This document shows, piece after piece, positions 2,552 through 13,612 of a stretch of DNA of 59,212 bases. The DNA comes from a virus. Its lineage: Duplodnaviria > Caudoviricetes. The notes below the pieces were generated by a model, which saw only the letters and a program-made list of their open reading frames with translations, did no database searches and was not told the origin of the DNA. Location: IMG/VR virus record IMGVR_UViG_3300036791_001093, positions 1-59,212 of that record; one strand, 5' to 3'. Within the stretch, counting starts at the first letter, position 1; each line of letters starts with the position of its first letter. A program made the position numbers and the translations under genes.

Positions 2552-2838
2552 CCTGGATGGAACTCGGACCGATCTTACAAGGCGAGCGCGCTGCATGGAT
2601 GGCCGGCTTCCTTTCCTGTCCCCCATCCCCCCCAGCCAGGAACCCTGCTGCCTCGCACGCGCGCTCGCCCCCCACATCCCCACATCCCCGCTGTCCCCCA
2701 TGCCGCCGCAAGGCGGCAGAAATCAGGCAACTCAATGCTCTGGTGGAACGGCAAGCGTGCGCTGATCGTGCTCTACCTGGCAGTGGCGGCAATGGCCGTG
2801 CTGGTCATGCTCGTTATCCTGCTTGGGAGGTAGCCAAC

Positions 2839-3021
2839 ATGAACGATCCGAGTCAGCAGCTGGTAGACGTCACCGCGCAAATCCGCCACGAGACCGACAA
2901 AGCCTATTTGCTGTTCGACGGCACTCGTGAGGCGTGGGTGCCCAAGAGCCAGGTCGAGAACAACGAAGACGGTACGTTCACAATGCCGGTATGGCTCGCT
3001 GAGGACAAGGAATTTATTTAG
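2839..3021 (+). CDS. small conserved phage protein (ETDKAYL...WVPKSQ)
   Basis: GGAGG SD; motif typical of a small phage protein family. Confidence 0.7.
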   Translation: MNDPSQQLVDVTAQIRHETDKAYLLFDGTREAWVPKSQVENNEDGTFTMPVWLAEDKEFI

Positions 3022-3275
3022 TAAACAGAGGGAAAAACATGGCAGACGAAAACATTCCCGATACACTGTGCCGGGAAATAATACCGCTGACTGGCAAGCA
3101 ATGCTGCAACAGACAATCCGTAATAAATGCAAGAAATATTACGCCGCGGGCTGAAACTCTGGCTGGAAGCCAATGGATACGAGTTTCCGCTGGAGACCGT
3201 CATACCCCAGGTAAAACCCATTAAAAAGGGCAGTTGGCGGCCTAGAAAATAGTTCAACTAAATACGAGAAACCCC

Positions 3276-3304
3276 TTGACAACTAGCAGGTATTATGGTA
3301 TAAT
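3276..3304 (+). promoter_or_regulatory. consensus sigma70 promoter TTGACA-17-TATAAT with extended -10 (TGn)
   Basis: TTGACA at 3276-3281, TATAAT at 3299-3304, upstream of the AAA operon. Confidence 0.9.
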
Positions 3305-3342
3305 GCTTATTCATGGTGGATAAGATTTGGTTTACCGAAATC

Positions 3343-3359
3343 TGTTACACGATGTAACA
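3343..3359. promoter_or_regulatory. 17-bp palindromic operator-like site, copy 2
   Basis: TGTTACACGATGTAACA between the promoter and the AAA start codon. Confidence 0.8.
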
Positions 3360-3392
3360 GAAACTCACTGAGCATGAAGAAGGAACAGTAAA

Positions 3393-4475
3393 ATGCGAAA
3401 ATTGAGCATCTCCCAGATCAAGACCACCATCAAGGAAATCGTGGTCCGGCTCGACAAGCCGGTCATTATCAAGGGCGGGTTTGGTATTGGCAAATCCCAG
3501 GGGGCCGAGCAGGCCGTCGAGGAGCTGGACAATCCCAAAGCGCTGCAATCCCTCCTGGGTAAAGACTGCCCCTACACTGGCGCGCTCATGGTGGATATCC
3601 GCCTGAGCCAGTACGACTCCGTCGATATGCGGGGCTTCCCGCAGGCCGACAAGAAGACCGGGACAGCGGTCTGGTATCCACCGGGCACCATGCCGTTCAT
3701 CGGCAACGACGCGTTCCCCGACGACAAGCTGATCGTGGTCTTTTTCGACGAGGCGCCCGATGCCAAGAACGACGTCTTTGCGGTGATGCAGCAGATACTC
3801 CTCAACCGCTGCTGCGGTGAGCACGTGCTCAAGCCCAACGTGCGCATGCTGCTGGCGGGCAACCGCGACGCCGATCAGGGACTGGCCAAGAAATTCCCCA
3901 TGCCGCTCAACAACCGTCTCACCCACGTCGAGGCGGTTAACCCTGTCGATGAGTTCTGCGTCTACGCCCAGAGCCAGGGTGTGCCTAGCGTGTTCATTGC
4001 CTTCTGGCAGTTCCGCCAGGAGCTCGTCAACACTTATGATCCCAAGAAAACCACTCCCGTGGTTGCGACTCCCAGAACCTGGTTTACCGCAGTAGAGTTC
4101 TGGCAGGACCGGCGCCTTACACCGGACATCAAGGAAGCCGCCATTATCGGCACTATCGGCGAAGGCCCGGCGATGGAGTTCCTGGCCTACGTCGATGTCT
4201 GGCAGAATCTGCCCTCCATCGACAAGATACTGGCAAACCCCAAGGGGATTCCCGTGCCGGAGGAACTATCGATCAAGTACGCCACCGCCATGCACGTCTC
4301 AGAAAAGATGACGCTCGGCAACGTCGATCGGCTCCATGTCTACCTGCGGCGCTTCACGGCGGAATTCGTGGTCATGGCATGGCAGCTTGCCGTGGCCAGG
4401 GATGCGACGCTGCCTGACTCCGATGCGTATCTTGAGTACGTAAAGGAATATCGCGTTGTATACATAAGTTCATAA
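3393..4475 (+). CDS. MoxR-like AAA+ ATPase
   Basis: Walker A GGFGIGKS, Walker B VVFFDE, AGNR sensor, LNNRL arginine finger, TPRTW. Confidence 0.9.
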
Positions 4476-4479
4476 CGCC

Positions 4480-5058
4480 ATGCCCCCTCTGATTGACATC
4501 ACCGGACAACGCTTCGGTCGGTACCTCGCCGTCAGAATTGCCGGCGAAGACAATCATGGCAAGCCGCTTTGGCTGTGCCATTGTGATTGTGGCAACAAGC
4601 GGCTCGTGCAGAGCGGTAATCTTCGCAGCGGTAAATCTCGATCATGCGGCTGTCGGAAAATTCGGCACGGACAAGCTCTTACTGACAAACGTACGCCGGA
4701 GTATGTCCTATGGAGGAACATGCTTAGTAGATGTGCTAACCCCAATCTCCCTAACTATAAAAACTACGGCGGACGCGGCATCAGAGTATGCAAACGTTGG
4801 CAATCGTTCGAGCAATTTTTTGCCGACATGGGGCCGCGGCCGTCCCCCGATCACTCGATCGATCGTATCGACAACGAAGGAAACTACCAACCAAGTAACT
4901 GCAAATGGAGTACGCGAAGCGAACAAATGTACAATAGGCGGCCGGCATCTGAGGCAACAAGGCAAAAGCGGCGCCGGCCGCATACCGAAGCGACAAAGCA
5001 GAAGATGCGGCTTGCCAAGCTCAAATATTGGCAGCTGAAAAACTGTTACATCGTGTAA
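4480..5058 (+). CDS. free-standing HNH homing endonuclease with C-terminal NUMOD3-like repeats
   Basis: [42 protein letters not shown]; tail [16 protein letters not shown]. Confidence 0.9.
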
Positions 5059-9558: not shown

Positions 9559-10272
9559 ATGGCCTTCCATGTTCGCTGCAACTTCAATCGTATCCAGTCT
9601 TATGCCCAGGCCTTGACGGCCTGGGAATATGGCGTGATCTTCCGCAACGCGCCAGCGCTGCGCGGGCTGGTCAATAAACGCAAGAAACATCTTACGGTTA
9701 GACAAACAGAGTCAGGGGATATCGTCCTGCAGCTGTACGGTCATGACACCGTGACCTGGCACAAAGACAACTCGGTGACTATTCGCGCACATCCTACACG
9801 ATCGACAATCGTGTTTGCTAACCATTGTACGCCCATGAGTATGTTCGTGGGGATGTGCGGCGGATACTTCTCCGTTACAGTTGACGGACGTACTTACAAA
9901 GTGGAGGACTGGATTAGATTCCGGCAGCGCGATAATACCTGGAAGGCAGATCAGATCACGCCATGGTCTATCCCTGCCGTCAACCGCGAGCGCGCCCGGC
10001 AAGCGCTCGACGAAACGGGTTACAAAGAGTTCCGAGTTTGGTTCCAGGTTTATGTGCAGATGGCTGTAGTATCGCAGGATGTTAATCCACTCATCAGGTA
10101 CAGGACTGGTACTGAAGTTGTTGATCTGTTGCGTCAGCGTAAATGGCGCGAGTTGGCCATGTGTTTCCAGAACTCCTGGGGACGCCCCGATCAGGCGTTG
10201 GACGCCGTACGACAGGCGATCTACCACGAATATAATTGCATGGAGCACAAGTCTGTGCCGTTCCTGGGGTGA
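9559..10272 (+). CDS. hypothetical protein
   Basis: Start-associated repeat; 237 aa. Confidence 0.75.
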   Translation: MAFHVRCNFNRIQSYAQALTAWEYGVIFRNAPALRGLVNKRKKHLTVRQTESGDIVLQLYGHDTVTWHKDNSVTIRAHPTRSTIVFANHCTPMSMFVGMCGGYFSVTVDGRTYKVEDWIRFRQRDNTWKADQITPWSIPAVNRERARQALDETGYKEFRVWFQVYVQMAVVSQDVNPLIRYRTGTEVVDLLRQRKWRELAMCFQNSWGRPDQALDAVRQAIYHEYNCMEHKSVPFLG

Positions 10273-10277
10273 TCGAA

Positions 10278-12974
10278 ATGAGAATCGCGGCCTTCGATAT
10301 AGAAACTAGCGGCGAGCTCCATGAGCATGCCCTTCAGCCTTGGCGCGTGCGTCAGGGCAAAGCCTGGTTGACGAGCTTGGCCTGGGTGTGGCGCCAGGAC
10401 GGTAAGACCCTCCATGATGGGGGGTTATTGTCCTCCCCATTGGAAACGACTCAGATGATCCGCGCCATGCTGGCGTGGGCGATCGAGAATGAGTCCATAC
10501 TGGTGGGGTGGAACGTCGTTTTCGACATTGCATGGCTCTATGCCTACGGCGAAAAGGACGCTGCCATCCTTGGGCTTCTTGACAAGGTCCGTTTTCTCGA
10601 TGCGATGCTGCTGTGGCGGCATTTAGATATCGAACCGGACTATGACCACAACCAGCACAGCTACAGCCTCAAGACGGCGGTGCCATTGTTCTTTCCGCAA
10701 TATGCCGGGTACGAAGCTGATATCGACTACCACGGAACGGACCCCGAGCAGCTTGCAAGACTCCATGAGTACAACATCAAGGACTGCGTCTTCACGCTGC
10801 GGCTGGCCTGGAAGTTCTGGAAGGGGTTAACTCACTCTCAACAGATCGTAGCCATAACCGAGGCCGCTTCGTTCAAGATGATCGCCCGCGCCAATCTGGA
10901 GGGGCTCACCGTAGACACGCTGGAGGCCGGCAATCTTTCCGCGTGCCTCAAGCAGGTCGCGGCCGCCAGGCTGGAAAGCCTGGCGCCACATGGCATCACC
11001 GAGAAGATCGTACGCTCGCCCAAGCAACTGGGTGAAGTTCTTTATGACCAGTGGAAACTCCCTGTGCACAACCTCACTCCTTCCGGCGCTCGATCTACTG
11101 ACAAGGTCAGTCTGCACCGGCTGGCGCTCAGGGACATCCGCGTCAAGCAGATCAAGGAATACCGCGAGGCGCTGAACAACGATACCAAGTTCGCACAGGC
11201 CCCTCTCAAATCATGCGCCTACAACGGCGACAGCCGTTCGCATCCGCAGATGAAGGTGTTCGGTACGTACAGCGGACGATGCACCTACGGTTCCAAGCAG
11301 GGCAAGAACAAAGGCACGCGGCAAATCGGATTCGCGCTGCATCAAGAGAAGCGTGATCCGGTGTTCCGCCGGATCATCGTGCCGCCGCCGGGGTTCACCT
11401 TGATGGAGTTCGACGCCGCCGGCCAGGAGTATCGCTGGATGGCAATCGCTTCTCGCGATGGGACCATGCTCAAGTTGTGCCAGCCAGGTCAGGACCCACA
11501 TGCCTACATGGGCTCAAGGATCGACCGCACACTTACTTACAAGCAGATTCAGGAGAATGCCAAGGTCATCGGATCGCCGGAGGCCAACGCACGTCAATGC
11601 GGTAAGGTTGTGAATTTGTGCGTCGCTAGAGATACCAAGATATTGACCGATCGTGGGTATGTCGCTATACAGAATGTCAAGTGCGATGATCTGGTTTGGG
11701 ATGGTGTCGAGTTTGTTACCCATAGTGGTGTTGTCTGTAGTGGCTATCGACCAGTTATCTCCTATCAAGGATTAACAGCAACACCAGAACATGGAGTGTT
11801 AGTTGATGGCGAGTGGGTCTCGCTTGAGGAAGCCGCCGCGCATGGTTGGACCATCTCATCCGAATTGGGCGCGGGATGGGCGGGTAAAGCGTGGGCAGCG
11901 TTTTGGATCGTGGATGGTGTTATCCAGCGTACCGTTCGAGAAAAGTGGCGCGCTCTATGTACGAGCACGTTGTGCCTGTGGCATCGAGCGAGAAGCCAAT
12001 CTTCGTTTCATGGAGACTGGACGATCAACGCAATGCAAAGCATGCGCTTCACGACAAGTGAATGCACGACGGGGGCGGTTTATTGTCCGCAGCGTAACAG
12101 ACAAGCGTTTACAAAAACGGGTCAACGCTTGGTTTCAGAGATGCAACAATCCGAAGGATCAAAGCTATCACAACTACGGCGGACGTGGGATCGAATGTCG
12201 ATTTGGTTCGGTTCGCGAAGCTATAGAGTGGGTCAAGAAACATCTACCGCATCCGACATATTTGAGACTCGACATCGGCCGGATCAACAACGATGGGTAT
12301 TACGAGCCCGGCAACCTGCGCTTAGAGACACGCTCGCAAAACCTACTAAACAGACGCAAGCGTATGTCTATGACATCGTGAACTGTGGACCACGATCCAG
12401 GTTCGCCGCCAATGGACTTATCGTACACAACTCTAGCCAATACCGAGTTGGTTCCAAGAAGCTTCAGCAGATTGCTGAGGTTGACTACGGCATTCGGCTG
12501 TCGCTTGAAGAGGCGCAGCGCATTCAGAAAGTTTACCTGGCGGCTTATCCAGGGCTTCAGCGATATTGGGCCAACCAAATTCAGTCGGCAGAAGCCAATG
12601 GATACGTTGAGACTATCGCTGGCCGCCGGGTCAAGCTGACTGGTTGGCGGGATGGTCATTGGAGTTGGCAGGTAGAAAGTACGGCGATCAACTATCGCAT
12701 CCAGGGAACAGGGGCTGACCAGAAATATCTCGCCCTGCGCTGTGTGCGGGAGTATCTCAATACGATCGGCGCAAGATTTGCGTGGGACCTGCACGATGGG
12801 CTCTATTTCTATGTGCCTACACCAAGGGTGGAAGAGGCGGCGCACGAGATCAAAGACATCTTCGATAACCTCCCTTACGAGGCTGTCTGGCGTTTCAAGC
12901 CGCCGATCCCGATGCCATGGGACTGCAAGGTAGGCCCCAGCTGGGGCGGTCTGAGACCATTCGAGTTTAGTTGA
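10278..12974 (+). CDS. polA: family A DNA polymerase (3'-5' exonuclease plus polymerase), intein-containing
   Basis: ExoI FDIETSG, ExoII GWNVVFD, TYSGR, motif A EFDAAGQEYR, motif B KVVNL/SSQY, NYRIQGTGAD, motif C LHDG. Confidence 0.95.
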   Translation: MRIAAFDIETSGELHEHALQPWRVRQGKAWLTSLAWVWRQDGKTLHDGGLLSSPLETTQMIRAMLAWAIENESILVGWNVVFDIAWLYAYGEKDAAILGLLDKVRFLDAMLLWRHLDIEPDYDHNQHSYSLKTAVPLFFPQYAGYEADIDYHGTDPEQLARLHEYNIKDCVFTLRLAWKFWKGLTHSQQIVAITEAASFKMIARANLEGLTVDTLEAGNLSACLKQVAAARLESLAPHGITEKIVRSPKQLGEVLYDQWKLPVHNLTPSGARSTDKVSLHRLALRDIRVKQIKEYREALNNDTKFAQAPLKSCAYNGDSRSHPQMKVFGTYSGRCTYGSKQGKNKGTRQIGFALHQEKRDPVFRRIIVPPPGFTLMEFDAAGQEYRWMAIASRDGTMLKLCQPGQDPHAYMGSRIDRTLTYKQIQENAKVIGSPEANARQCGKVVNLCVARDTKILTDRGYVAIQNVKCDDLVWDGVEFVTHSGVVCSGYRPVISYQGLTATPEHGVLVDGEWVSLEEAAAHGWTISSELGAGWAGKAWAAFWIVDGVIQRTVREKWRALCTSTLCLWHRARSQSSFHGDWTINAMQSMRFTTSECTTGAVYCPQRNRQAFTKTGQRLVSEMQQSEGSKLSQLRRTWDRMSIWFGSRSYRVGQETSTASDIFETRHRPDQQRWVLRARQPALRDTLAKPTKQTQAYVYDIVNCGPRSRFAANGLIVHNSSQYRVGSKKLQQIAEVDYGIRLSLEEAQRIQKVYLAAYPGLQRYWANQIQSAEANGYVETIAGRRVKLTGWRDGHWSWQVESTAINYRIQGTGADQKYLALRCVREYLNTIGARFAWDLHDGLYFYVPTPRVEEAAHEIKDIFDNLPYEAVWRFKPPIPMPWDCKVGPSWGGLRPFEFS
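11619..12431 (+). mobile_element. intein (271 aa) inserted in polymerase motif B
   Basis: Begins CVARDTKILT, block B TPEH, ends VYDIVN..FAANGLIVHN followed by +1 Ser. Confidence 0.95.
11842..12381 (+). CDS. HNH homing endonuclease encoded in the +1 frame inside the intein
   Basis: GAGGA SD at 11826, ATG at 11842; GQRFG, CACG, CKAC, RCNNP, YHNYGGRGI, IGRINNDGYYEPGNLR; same family as 4480-5058. Confidence 0.85.
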   Translation: MVGPSHPNWARDGRVKRGQRFGSWMVLSSVPFEKSGALYVRARCACGIEREANLRFMETGRSTQCKACASRQVNARRGRFIVRSVTDKRLQKRVNAWFQRCNNPKDQSYHNYGGRGIECRFGSVREAIEWVKKHLPHPTYLRLDIGRINNDGYYEPGNLRLETRSQNLLNRRKRMSMTS

Positions 12975-13026
12975 CCGCGAAAGGAAGGTGATGCCTATTG
13001 GACACGGCCCGACCGATTTTAATAGA

Positions 13027-13056
13027 TCGCCCCCACCACCATGGTGGTGGGGGCGA
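13027..13056. repeat. perfect 30-bp palindrome
   Basis: TCGCCCCCACCACCA|TGGTGGTGGGGGCGA. Confidence 0.9.
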
Positions 13057-13075
13057 CGCAAAGGGACTAACCATC

Positions 13076-13612
13076 ATGCGCTATCATGCAATTTATGCCG
13101 ACCCGCCGTGGTCGTTCCGCACCTGGAGCGCGCGGGGCCGCGGCCGGGCAGCGGAGCGTCACTACAGGTCACACTCCACACTCGACACGATCAAGAGGCT
13201 GCCGATCCAAAACCTCGCTGCCAAGGACTGCGCGTTATTCCTGTGGGCAACCTGGCCCAACCTTGACGATGCCCGCGAGGTTATCGCATCGTGGGGATTC
13301 ACCTACAAGACCTGCGCGTTCCTGTGGGTAAAACAAACCAAGCGCGGTAACGGGTTGCACTTTGGTTTGGGGTACTGGACTCGTGCTAACTCCGAGCCGT
13401 GCCTGCTTGCGACTTGCGGCAAGCCCAAACGGCTTCATGCTGATGTCCCGCAGATTATTCTTGAGCCTGTGCGCGAGCATAGCCGCAAGCCTGACTGCGT
13501 ACGTCAGCGGATCGAGAGACTTGTTGCTGGGCCGCGTATCGAATTATATGCCCGCAATTCCGATCATCTTGGGTGGGATTTCTGGGGAGACGAGATAGAG
13601 AGGTTCCAATGA
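13076..13612 (+). CDS. MT-A70 family N6-adenine methyltransferase
   Basis: IYADPPW, LFLWAT, WGFTYKT, WVK, GYWTRANSE, HSRKP, IELYAR, WGDE. Confidence 0.92.
   Translation: MRYHAIYADPPWSFRTWSARGRGRAAERHYRSHSTLDTIKRLPIQNLAAKDCALFLWATWPNLDDAREVIASWGFTYKTCAFLWVKQTKRGNGLHFGLGYWTRANSEPCLLATCGKPKRLHADVPQIILEPVREHSRKPDCVRQRIERLVAGPRIELYARNSDHLGWDFWGDEIERFQ

Follow-up and report, generated by a model that had tools for sequence, protein, structure and literature searches.

A phage DNA polymerase intein with a predicted PacI-like nuclease gene in a second reading frame

Introduction

Inteins are thought to be composites, in which a nuclease was joined at a later stage to a splicing domain. Direct comparative material for this idea is, to our knowledge, scarce. 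The locus described here lies in the metagenome-assembled virus record IMGVR_UViG_3300036791_001093, a soil phage; the whole stretch of 59,212 bases (completeness estimate 93%) is referred to as the window. The family-A DNA polymerase gene of the window is a single open reading frame (ORF) that runs without interruption through a 271-residue intein, and the DNA for the centre of this intein contains a second ORF in the +1 frame. A preliminary description, made from the sequence alone, had taken the second ORF for the gene of an HNH homing nuclease that invaded a mini-intein and is translated separately. The questions raised by the locus are whether the same DNA is kept open for both an intein and a nuclease gene, what kind of nuclease this is, and whether the arrangement is a rare intermediate or a stable state. 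Our analysis supports a two-part mobile element, consisting of a class-1 intein and a separately encoded +1 nuclease gene, at a site that we take to be polymerase motif B. We put the probability of this reading at about 0.85.

Results

The open stretch of the +1 frame spans 11803–12381; it contains an ATG at 11842 and ends with a TGA at 12379–12381. Over the 179 codons of the nested ORF, the intein frame contains no stop codon and the third frame contains eight. As a control, the nuclease protein was kept fixed while its synonymous codons were redrawn (usage-weighted or uniform), or the codons were shuffled, with 20,000 trials in each case. The mean number of stops in the intein frame was 8.1 for usage-weighted codons, 11.7 for uniform codons and 9.4 for the codon shuffle, and trials with zero stops numbered 2/20,000, 0/20,000 and 0/20,000, respectively. 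A double open frame by chance (≤1e-4) is excluded, and the roughly 540 bp that had been described as dual-coding are indeed free of stops in both frames. In the free-standing paralogue of the nested gene (4480–5058), the frame that corresponds to the intein frame contains 13 stops. At the offset found here, an intein-frame stop requires a nuclease codon ending in T followed by a codon that begins with AA, AG or GA. Wobble T precedes such codons in 0 of 42 cases in the nested gene, as compared to 40/136 elsewhere and 13/54 in the paralogue. That the intein frame remains open is due solely to the nuclease gene never placing a T-ending codon in front of AA, AG or GA. Avoiding T in this way costs the nuclease protein nothing, and about 40 wobble choices are enough to hold two frames open.

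Selection was examined by comparing the window with six related loci (L030, L031, L032, L034, L035 and L036; 21 pairs), using the Nei–Gojobori ratio of non-synonymous to synonymous substitution rates (dN/dS). Pairwise differences per site are 0.32, 0.31 and 0.55 at nuclease codon positions 1, 2 and 3. In the nuclease frame dN/dS is 0.12–0.28 (the 13 of 21 pairs in which dS is unsaturated), which is the purifying selection that had been expected for the +1 frame. The overlap read in the intein frame gives 0.93–2.19, and the unused frame gives 1.15–2.21 (all 21 pairs). A phase scan was carried out on the gap-free alignment of the window, L030 and L031. Between 11619 and about 11829, variation is highest at intein position 3. 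Over the following stretch, up to about 12339, nuclease position 3 varies most, and beyond it intein position 3 takes over again. These switch points coincide with the borders of the nested ORF. Within the overlap it is the nuclease frame that is under purifying selection, and at both ends of the intein it is the intein frame. The switch of wobble phase, the contrast in dN/dS and the recurrence of the layout in dozens of diverged loci (see below) bear out the central claim of the preliminary description, that the nuclease gene is encoded separately in another frame while the intein frame is kept open.

The host frame bears the marks of a class-1 intein (Hint fold), and splicing is predicted. 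Block A starts with Cys (11619–11621), block B contains TPEH (intein residues 55–58), and blocks F and G read VYDIVNCGP...IVHN, with a His-Asn end and Ser as the +1 extein residue. In 21 aligned inteins C1, T55, H58, V269 and N271 are invariant and H270 is nearly so (≥90%); the motif of blocks F and G is kept in all 21, with V/I/L and H/S variants. Blocks F and G share the frame of block A in 21/21 aligned contiguous loci. A profile built from 21 related inteins matches solved inteins with E-values of 4e-4 to 0.1, the best being PI-MtuI (E 4e-4), whose block B aligns with block B of the profile. Within the in-frame intein only the splicing ends find a match; no nuclease domain was detected in Pfam, NCBIfam or PHROGs, and none of the 21 in-frame inteins has a Pfam nuclease match. 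The 271-residue intein in the open polymerase frame, originally recognised by its Cys1, TPEH and HN/S, and the lack of nuclease motifs in its centre thus both stand. As far as sequence comparison goes, the conserved parts of the intein are the N-terminal ~75 residues and the C-terminal ~25 residues, the putative splicing regions, and the central ~165 residues would be mere off-frame read-through of the nuclease gene.

The polymerase ORF matches Pfam DNA_pol_A (E 1.7e-40) and phrog_17 (E 5e-69). The intein is inserted between GKVVNL and SSQYRVG, and in four intein-less relatives (L002, L003, L006 and L012) these two motifs adjoin unbroken exactly at the insertion point. Of the 30 loci in which both exteins were matched, 21 have a junction gap of 0 nt, the eight closest included. 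The in-frame insertion is precise, is located at a conserved host site and is missing from orthologues, as expected of an intein. A blastn search of the polymerase gene against GenBank phages gave no match.

The nested product matches phrog_374 ('HNH endonuclease', E 3e-26) and phrog_8790 (restriction endonuclease, E 6e-12). All 22 aligned members of the family, nested or free-standing, match phrog_374. The proposed membership of the +1 ORF in the family of the free-standing gene at 4480 is upheld by the phrog_374 match and by BLASTP (Table 1). Searching both frames with hidden Markov models, a check suggested in the preliminary description, had a mixed outcome: PHROGs identify an HNH nuclease in the nested frame and none in the intein frame, and Pfam is silent on the nested ORF. 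Specifically, the +1 product has no Pfam Endonuclease_7 or LAGLIDADG match. Invariant in the 22 aligned sequences are four Cys, R100, R147, Y154 and N158, all of which are present in the window copy; N150 and N170 are nearly invariant. The family profile, when compared with the PDB, finds PacI (3LDY, E 0.017) and I-HmuI (1U3E, E 0.026), with the R, Y and N residues aligned. The ...DRIDN-G-Y-P-N... stretch aligns with both enzymes, and Arg is found at the position of the catalytic His of I-HmuI. In Jablonska 2017 (PMC5714182), PacI is described as having no catalytic His and as using a loop Tyr. In the nested family Arg replaces His and the loop Tyr is invariant. On these sequence features, the nested product is predicted to be a PacI-like His-Me-finger nuclease of the HNH superfamily. 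The nearest clusters in the ESM Atlas are unnamed viral proteins (0.94–0.95), with weak leads to proteins of NUMOD/AP2 type (0.86–0.87). Seven of the 22 members have a further match, to phrog_1035 ('endonuclease VII', best E 2e-6), so that a distant kinship with the endonuclease VII-like out-of-frame homing endonucleases (HENs) of actinophages is possible.

The eight closest polymerases (N-extein identity 71–82%) have no intein. A homologous intein is found at the same site in seven loci, and also in L021; the exteins of these eight loci are only 40–57% identical. Between such loci the splicing ends are 50–84% identical, the nuclease 53–72% and the flanking exteins 46–59%, so that the element is mostly more alike than its surroundings. 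Sporadic presence, with no intein in the nearest polymerases, and an element more alike than its exteins fit the horizontal spread of a mobile element.

Layouts were compared across the relatives. Among the viral loci found with the nested protein, L027–L029 have the layout of the window, and so does L021. A tally of 95 intein instances (the window and 80 viral loci) gave 37 contiguous inteins with the nuclease in +1 and seven with the nuclease in +2. In another 44 the host frame is stopped about 320 nt into the intein and the nuclease ORF follows in +1; six have no nuclease, and one is a mis-pairing. In L095, for instance, polymerase ORFs lie at 1544–2824 and 3364–4392, and the nuclease ORF (2688–3488) is located between them and overlaps both. 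The split polymerase layout, as in L095 (1544–4392), is also seen in L050, L064, L082 and others. With the in-frame intein as query, 160 host proteins were retrieved, polymerases plus some helicases; among the 120 listed, none carries the nuclease in the host frame, except for a patch of 36 residues in P0026. P0026 is a polymerase fragment of 544 residues with 36 residues of nuclease frame between off-frame stretches, and its ends are garbled. It was rejected as a canonical in-frame HNH intein and is regarded as a patchwork, a decayed or mis-assembled copy.

Stops were then counted in 140 of 164 nuclease regions (≥130 codons, after removal of near-duplicates; 160 loci and the window). The 59 non-redundant intein-associated regions (46 in +1, 13 in +2) have zero intein-frame stops. 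The 28 interrupted, split-type loci average 13.7 stops, and none (0/28) is free of them. For the 53 regions with no upstream intein match the average is 14.7 stops in the equivalent frame, with a single region of the 53 having none. As 'contiguous' is itself defined by zero stops, the informative result of this census is its bimodality. The preliminary description had called the arrangement rare; with 59 non-redundant loci, the layout is common in this nuclease family.

Several variants of the layout were seen. L076 (2501–3253; 3740 onward) and L104 (2501–3277; 3812 onward) are cases in which a single host ORF holds two inteins, and a +1 nuclease ORF is nested in each of them. L034 (2721–3443), L035 (2721–3416), L036 (2736–3416) and L021 (4589 onward) have an extra conserved nuclease module of about 60 residues at the C-terminus; the inteins of these four loci are 323–332 residues long, with about 700 nt dual-coded and both frames open. 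The +2 clade comprises 12–13 non-redundant inteins with zero intein-frame stops (L046, L062, L063, L090, L091, L102, L106 and others).

The arrangement is also present in isolate genomes. The continuous polymerase coding sequences (CDSs) of three GenBank phages (Table 1) each contain an intein and, nested in it, an unannotated nuclease ORF with 253–264 codons open, and further GenBank phage matches are listed under polymerase CDSs beyond these three. A scan of a genome collection with the intein alignment, which used narrow patterns and is no measure of rarity, found one locus, on a contig of an uncultured Roseicyclus metagenome-assembled genome. The nested ORF of the window is not among the 119 proteins returned by the search made with it (none is 100% identical), and the window polymerase was present in the earlier search, as P0001. 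That the polymerase is listed and the nested ORF is missing indicates that gene callers overlook such nested genes.

A quick maximum-likelihood tree of 134 non-redundant nucleases was calculated, with midpoint root and with Shimodaira–Hasegawa-like approximate likelihood ratio test (SH-aLRT) support only. The four layouts are strongly clustered on it, with 8 changes as compared to 67 when the labels are shuffled; the label 'free' here means that three intein queries gave no upstream match. The window nuclease is located in a supported clade of 52 rows, of which 27 are split, 23 contiguous +1 and 2 'free'. A second contiguous +1 group (20) lies inside the free-standing diversity, in the same major clade as the paralogue at 4480–5058, and the 12 contiguous +2 cases form one tree group. 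The paralogue and the nested nuclease of the window fall in different major clades. The overprinted state appears in at least two to three separate clades. Since it is deep and occurs in several clades, a stable architecture fits better than a transient one. The notion of an intermediate in intein evolution fits poorly; the clades are deep and recoded, and the arrangement looks like a stable state.

The features of the locus and the three GenBank phage genes are listed in Table 1. Directly after the polymerase gene, the ORF at 12998–13612 contains a DPPW motif, which we take to be typical of N6-adenine/N4-cytosine DNA methyltransferases. The free-standing paralogue adjoins an ORF of 360 residues (3393–4475).

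Table 1. Features of the polymerase locus in the window and nested nucleases in GenBank phages
Feature	Position	Strand	Remarks
Family-A DNA polymerase ORF	10236–12974	+	912 aa, uninterrupted
Polymerase N-extein	10236–11618	+	Ends ...GKVVNL; Pfam/PHROG matches; junction continuous in intein-less relatives
Predicted class-1 intein, 271 aa	11619–12431	+	Polymerase frame; Cys1, TPEH, VYDIVNCGP...IVHN then Ser
Putative N-terminal splicing region	11619–11841	+	Intein-frame selection to ~11829; phrog_26005 matches intein residues 14–73
GAGGA, Shine–Dalgarno-like	11826–11830	+	11 nt before ATG 11842; read from sequence
Nested ORF, predicted PacI-like HNH-superfamily nuclease, 179 aa	11842–12381	+	+1 frame; phrog_374; 540-nt dual-coded stretch
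Putative C-terminal splicing region, blocks F and G	12355–12431	+	First ~27 nt overlap end of nested ORF
Polymerase C-extein	12432–12974	+	Starts SSQYRVG
Free-standing paralogue, 192 aa	4480–5058	+	BLASTP to nested ORF: 34% identity, E 4e-19
EBPR siphovirus 2 gp51 (L189)			Polymerase CDS 1046 aa; nested nuclease +2
Pseudomonas phage MR14 (L190)			Polymerase CDS 1080 aa; nested nuclease +2
Streptococcus phage Javan255 (L191)			Polymerase CDS 961 aa; nested nuclease +1

Discussion

We propose that the element works as follows. Ribosomes would read the polymerase frame straight through the overlap, and the Hint domain made up of the two intein ends would excise itself together with the filler loop. 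A minority of initiations at the internal ATG (11842) would make the nuclease separately. In a co-infection, the nuclease would be predicted to cut intein-less polymerase alleles near the insertion site, and repair would copy the whole element into the cut allele (homing). The element may have originated when a free-standing nuclease gene invaded a mini-intein.

The weakest point of this mechanism is the initiation signal of the nested ORF. The Shine–Dalgarno (SD) motif claimed for it, GAGGA, lies 11 nt upstream of the ATG but lacks conservation in six close relatives, and no promoter-like site was found in 11300–12700 (three terminator-like sites in this region are all on the minus strand). 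Other observations also count against the proposal. The scores for curated intein models do not reach the cut-offs (PF14890, E 0.093, 13 bits against 35.8; TIGR01445, E 0.016, 16.2 bits, under 24.5). The nested ORF has no Pfam or NCBIfam match, no HNH model included, and the profile matches to PDB structures are weak (E about 0.02). The window copy reads 'GRINN' (Gly, Asn) where most relatives have the acidic 'DRIDN', a change shared by L044 alone; this particular nuclease copy could be weakened. Finally, loss combined with slow evolution, instead of transfer, could also leave the element more conserved than the exteins.

The window is a metagenome assembly and was aligned with contigs rather than raw reads, and in principle two compensating indels could have displaced the nuclease of a conventional HNH intein from the host frame. 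This is hardly credible. An independent contig from the probable source run covers 11486–12700 with 0 differences and 0 gaps, and the contig pieces from a second study (11719–11903 and 12112–12261) show substitutions only; on this comparison of contigs, the refutation by compensating indels that the preliminary description named fails. Moreover, about 14 stops would be expected if an ordinary family member were read off frame; the frame offset recurs in the 59 non-redundant loci and in isolate genomes, and no in-frame nuclease was found in the 120 listed host proteins. It is equally implausible that the insert is a group I or group II intron. HNH genes are, as is generally known, common in phage introns, but no Rfam match was found in 11300–12800 at E-values up to 1, the insert carries intein blocks at either end, and no stop interrupts the host frame. 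Very doubtful, too, is the idea that the central ~165 residues read in the intein frame are themselves a functional domain and the overlap has a true dual function. These residues do align across many host proteins (25–50% identity), but conservation of the other frame would produce such similarity. Their dN/dS resembles that of the unused frame, their most variable phase is their own codon position 1, and no Pfam, NCBIfam or PHROG domain is found in them.

Programmed +1 ribosomal frameshifting just upstream of 11842, which would fuse the nuclease to the N-extein and the N-terminal part of the intein, would account for the poorly conserved SD motif and for the +1 location of the nuclease in most related loci. 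We nevertheless consider it improbable. An ATG is found at the homologous position in five of seven close relatives, L032 has a shifted ATG and L036 a TTG, and 13 non-redundant loci have a +2 offset. Stops in the nested frame lie 6–8 codons upstream of the start in L032 and L034, and 13 codons upstream in the window (TAG, 11800–11802), so that at most 39 nt are left for a shift. A more serious but still unlikely explanation is that the nuclease is functional in the lineage while the copy in the window is silent or dying, with the intein passed on by vertical descent alone. 'GRINN' and the weak SD would suit such a relic. On the other side, the ORF is intact and keeps every invariant residue of the family, six of the seven listed substitutions in the 12112–12261 piece of the second study fall at nuclease wobble positions (phases assigned by hand), and the eight nearest polymerases lack the intein. 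We thus retain the two-part mobile element as the description of the locus.

Taken together, the data make us lean towards a broader view. The locus probably belongs to a class that is large and old and has more than one evolutionary origin, in which PacI-like nucleases are overprinted on the inteins of phage replication genes. The overprinted form would be a stable end state held by the rule on wobble T, the contiguous and split forms would be sister states, and many intein centres of 'unknown' type and many GenBank phage polymerase genes would hide an unannotated nuclease. A single nuclease family occurs here in four states: as a free-standing gene, between the two parts of a split intein, overprinted on a contiguous intein in +1, and overprinted in +2. 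With four states in one family, the order of events becomes testable by phylogeny and by experiment. For annotation, the consequence is that gene callers miss nested genes of this kind, as in the polymerase CDSs of the three GenBank phages, each of which carries one without annotation.

Comparison with known systems

The preprint of Gosselin, Arsenault and Gogarten (2025) describes actinophage inteins with a HEN in another frame or on the opposite strand and proposes invasion by free-standing HENs; it matches the split-frame precedents in actinophages that the preliminary description had mentioned. The inteins it reports are like that of the window in that the splicing blocks are in the extein frame with a same-strand nuclease ORF between them in another frame, the in-frame read has no recognisable domain, which for the window holds at sequence level, and the nuclease has free-standing phage relatives. 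They differ in the nuclease, which is endonuclease VII-like (IPR004211) with its core in residues 1–67 and lies in 'frame 3', and in the hosts, which are actinophage DNA polymerase, minor capsid, terminase and thymidylate synthase genes. The nuclease of the window is PacI-like, with no Pfam model and a C-terminal core, in frame 2, and its host is the family-A polymerase of a soil phage, at motif B. Phillips, DeSimone and Gogarten (bioRxiv 10.64898/2026.09.14.751524), who credit Gorbalenya 1998 ('Non-canonical inteins'), report an out-of-frame gene for a LAGLIDADG homing endonuclease in the dnaX intein of cyanobacteria. That intein likewise contains an overlapping endonuclease ORF, with dN/dS in the overlap low in the endonuclease frame and raised in the extein frame, and is sporadic in distribution. 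It differs in the LAGLIDADG family, the +2 ORF and the cellular dnaX host, as compared to a phage polymerase.

In the 'fractured gene' with a split intein of Dassa et al. 2009 (PMC2677866), the host gene is divided into two ORFs around a nuclease gene. Relatives of the window element, such as L095, have this organisation (28 non-redundant loci). The intein of the window is contiguous, and the nucleases of Dassa et al. are GIY-YIG and Vsr-like, not of the HNH superfamily. The ShiLan domain (Arsenault et al. 2025, PMC11855218) is an HNH domain concealed in another frame of a phage methylase gene. It shares with the window an out-of-frame HNH in an uninterrupted host ORF, the lack of a clear ribosome-binding site and a debated translation; it has no splicing domains, and the insert remains in the host protein. 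PacI (His-Me finger group 20, PMC5714182) resembles the nested product in the motif D-R-x-D-x(3-4)-G-Y-x-P-x-N, the Arg in place of His, the loop Tyr and the zinc-type Cys residues. It differs in that the profile match reaches an E-value of only 0.017 and in being a cellular restriction enzyme, not a homing nuclease.

In the literature covered, with subscription journals and supplements outside the search, we did not find this nuclease family in inteins of family-A polymerases, the +1 offset, the motif B host site, the wobble-T rule or a connection of contiguous with split forms inside a single nuclease family. An out-of-frame nuclease in an intein is, according to Gosselin 2025 and Phillips 2026, already a described kind of arrangement. 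What the present locus and its relatives add to the described cases is the nuclease family, the frame offset, the host gene and the split-intein relatives.

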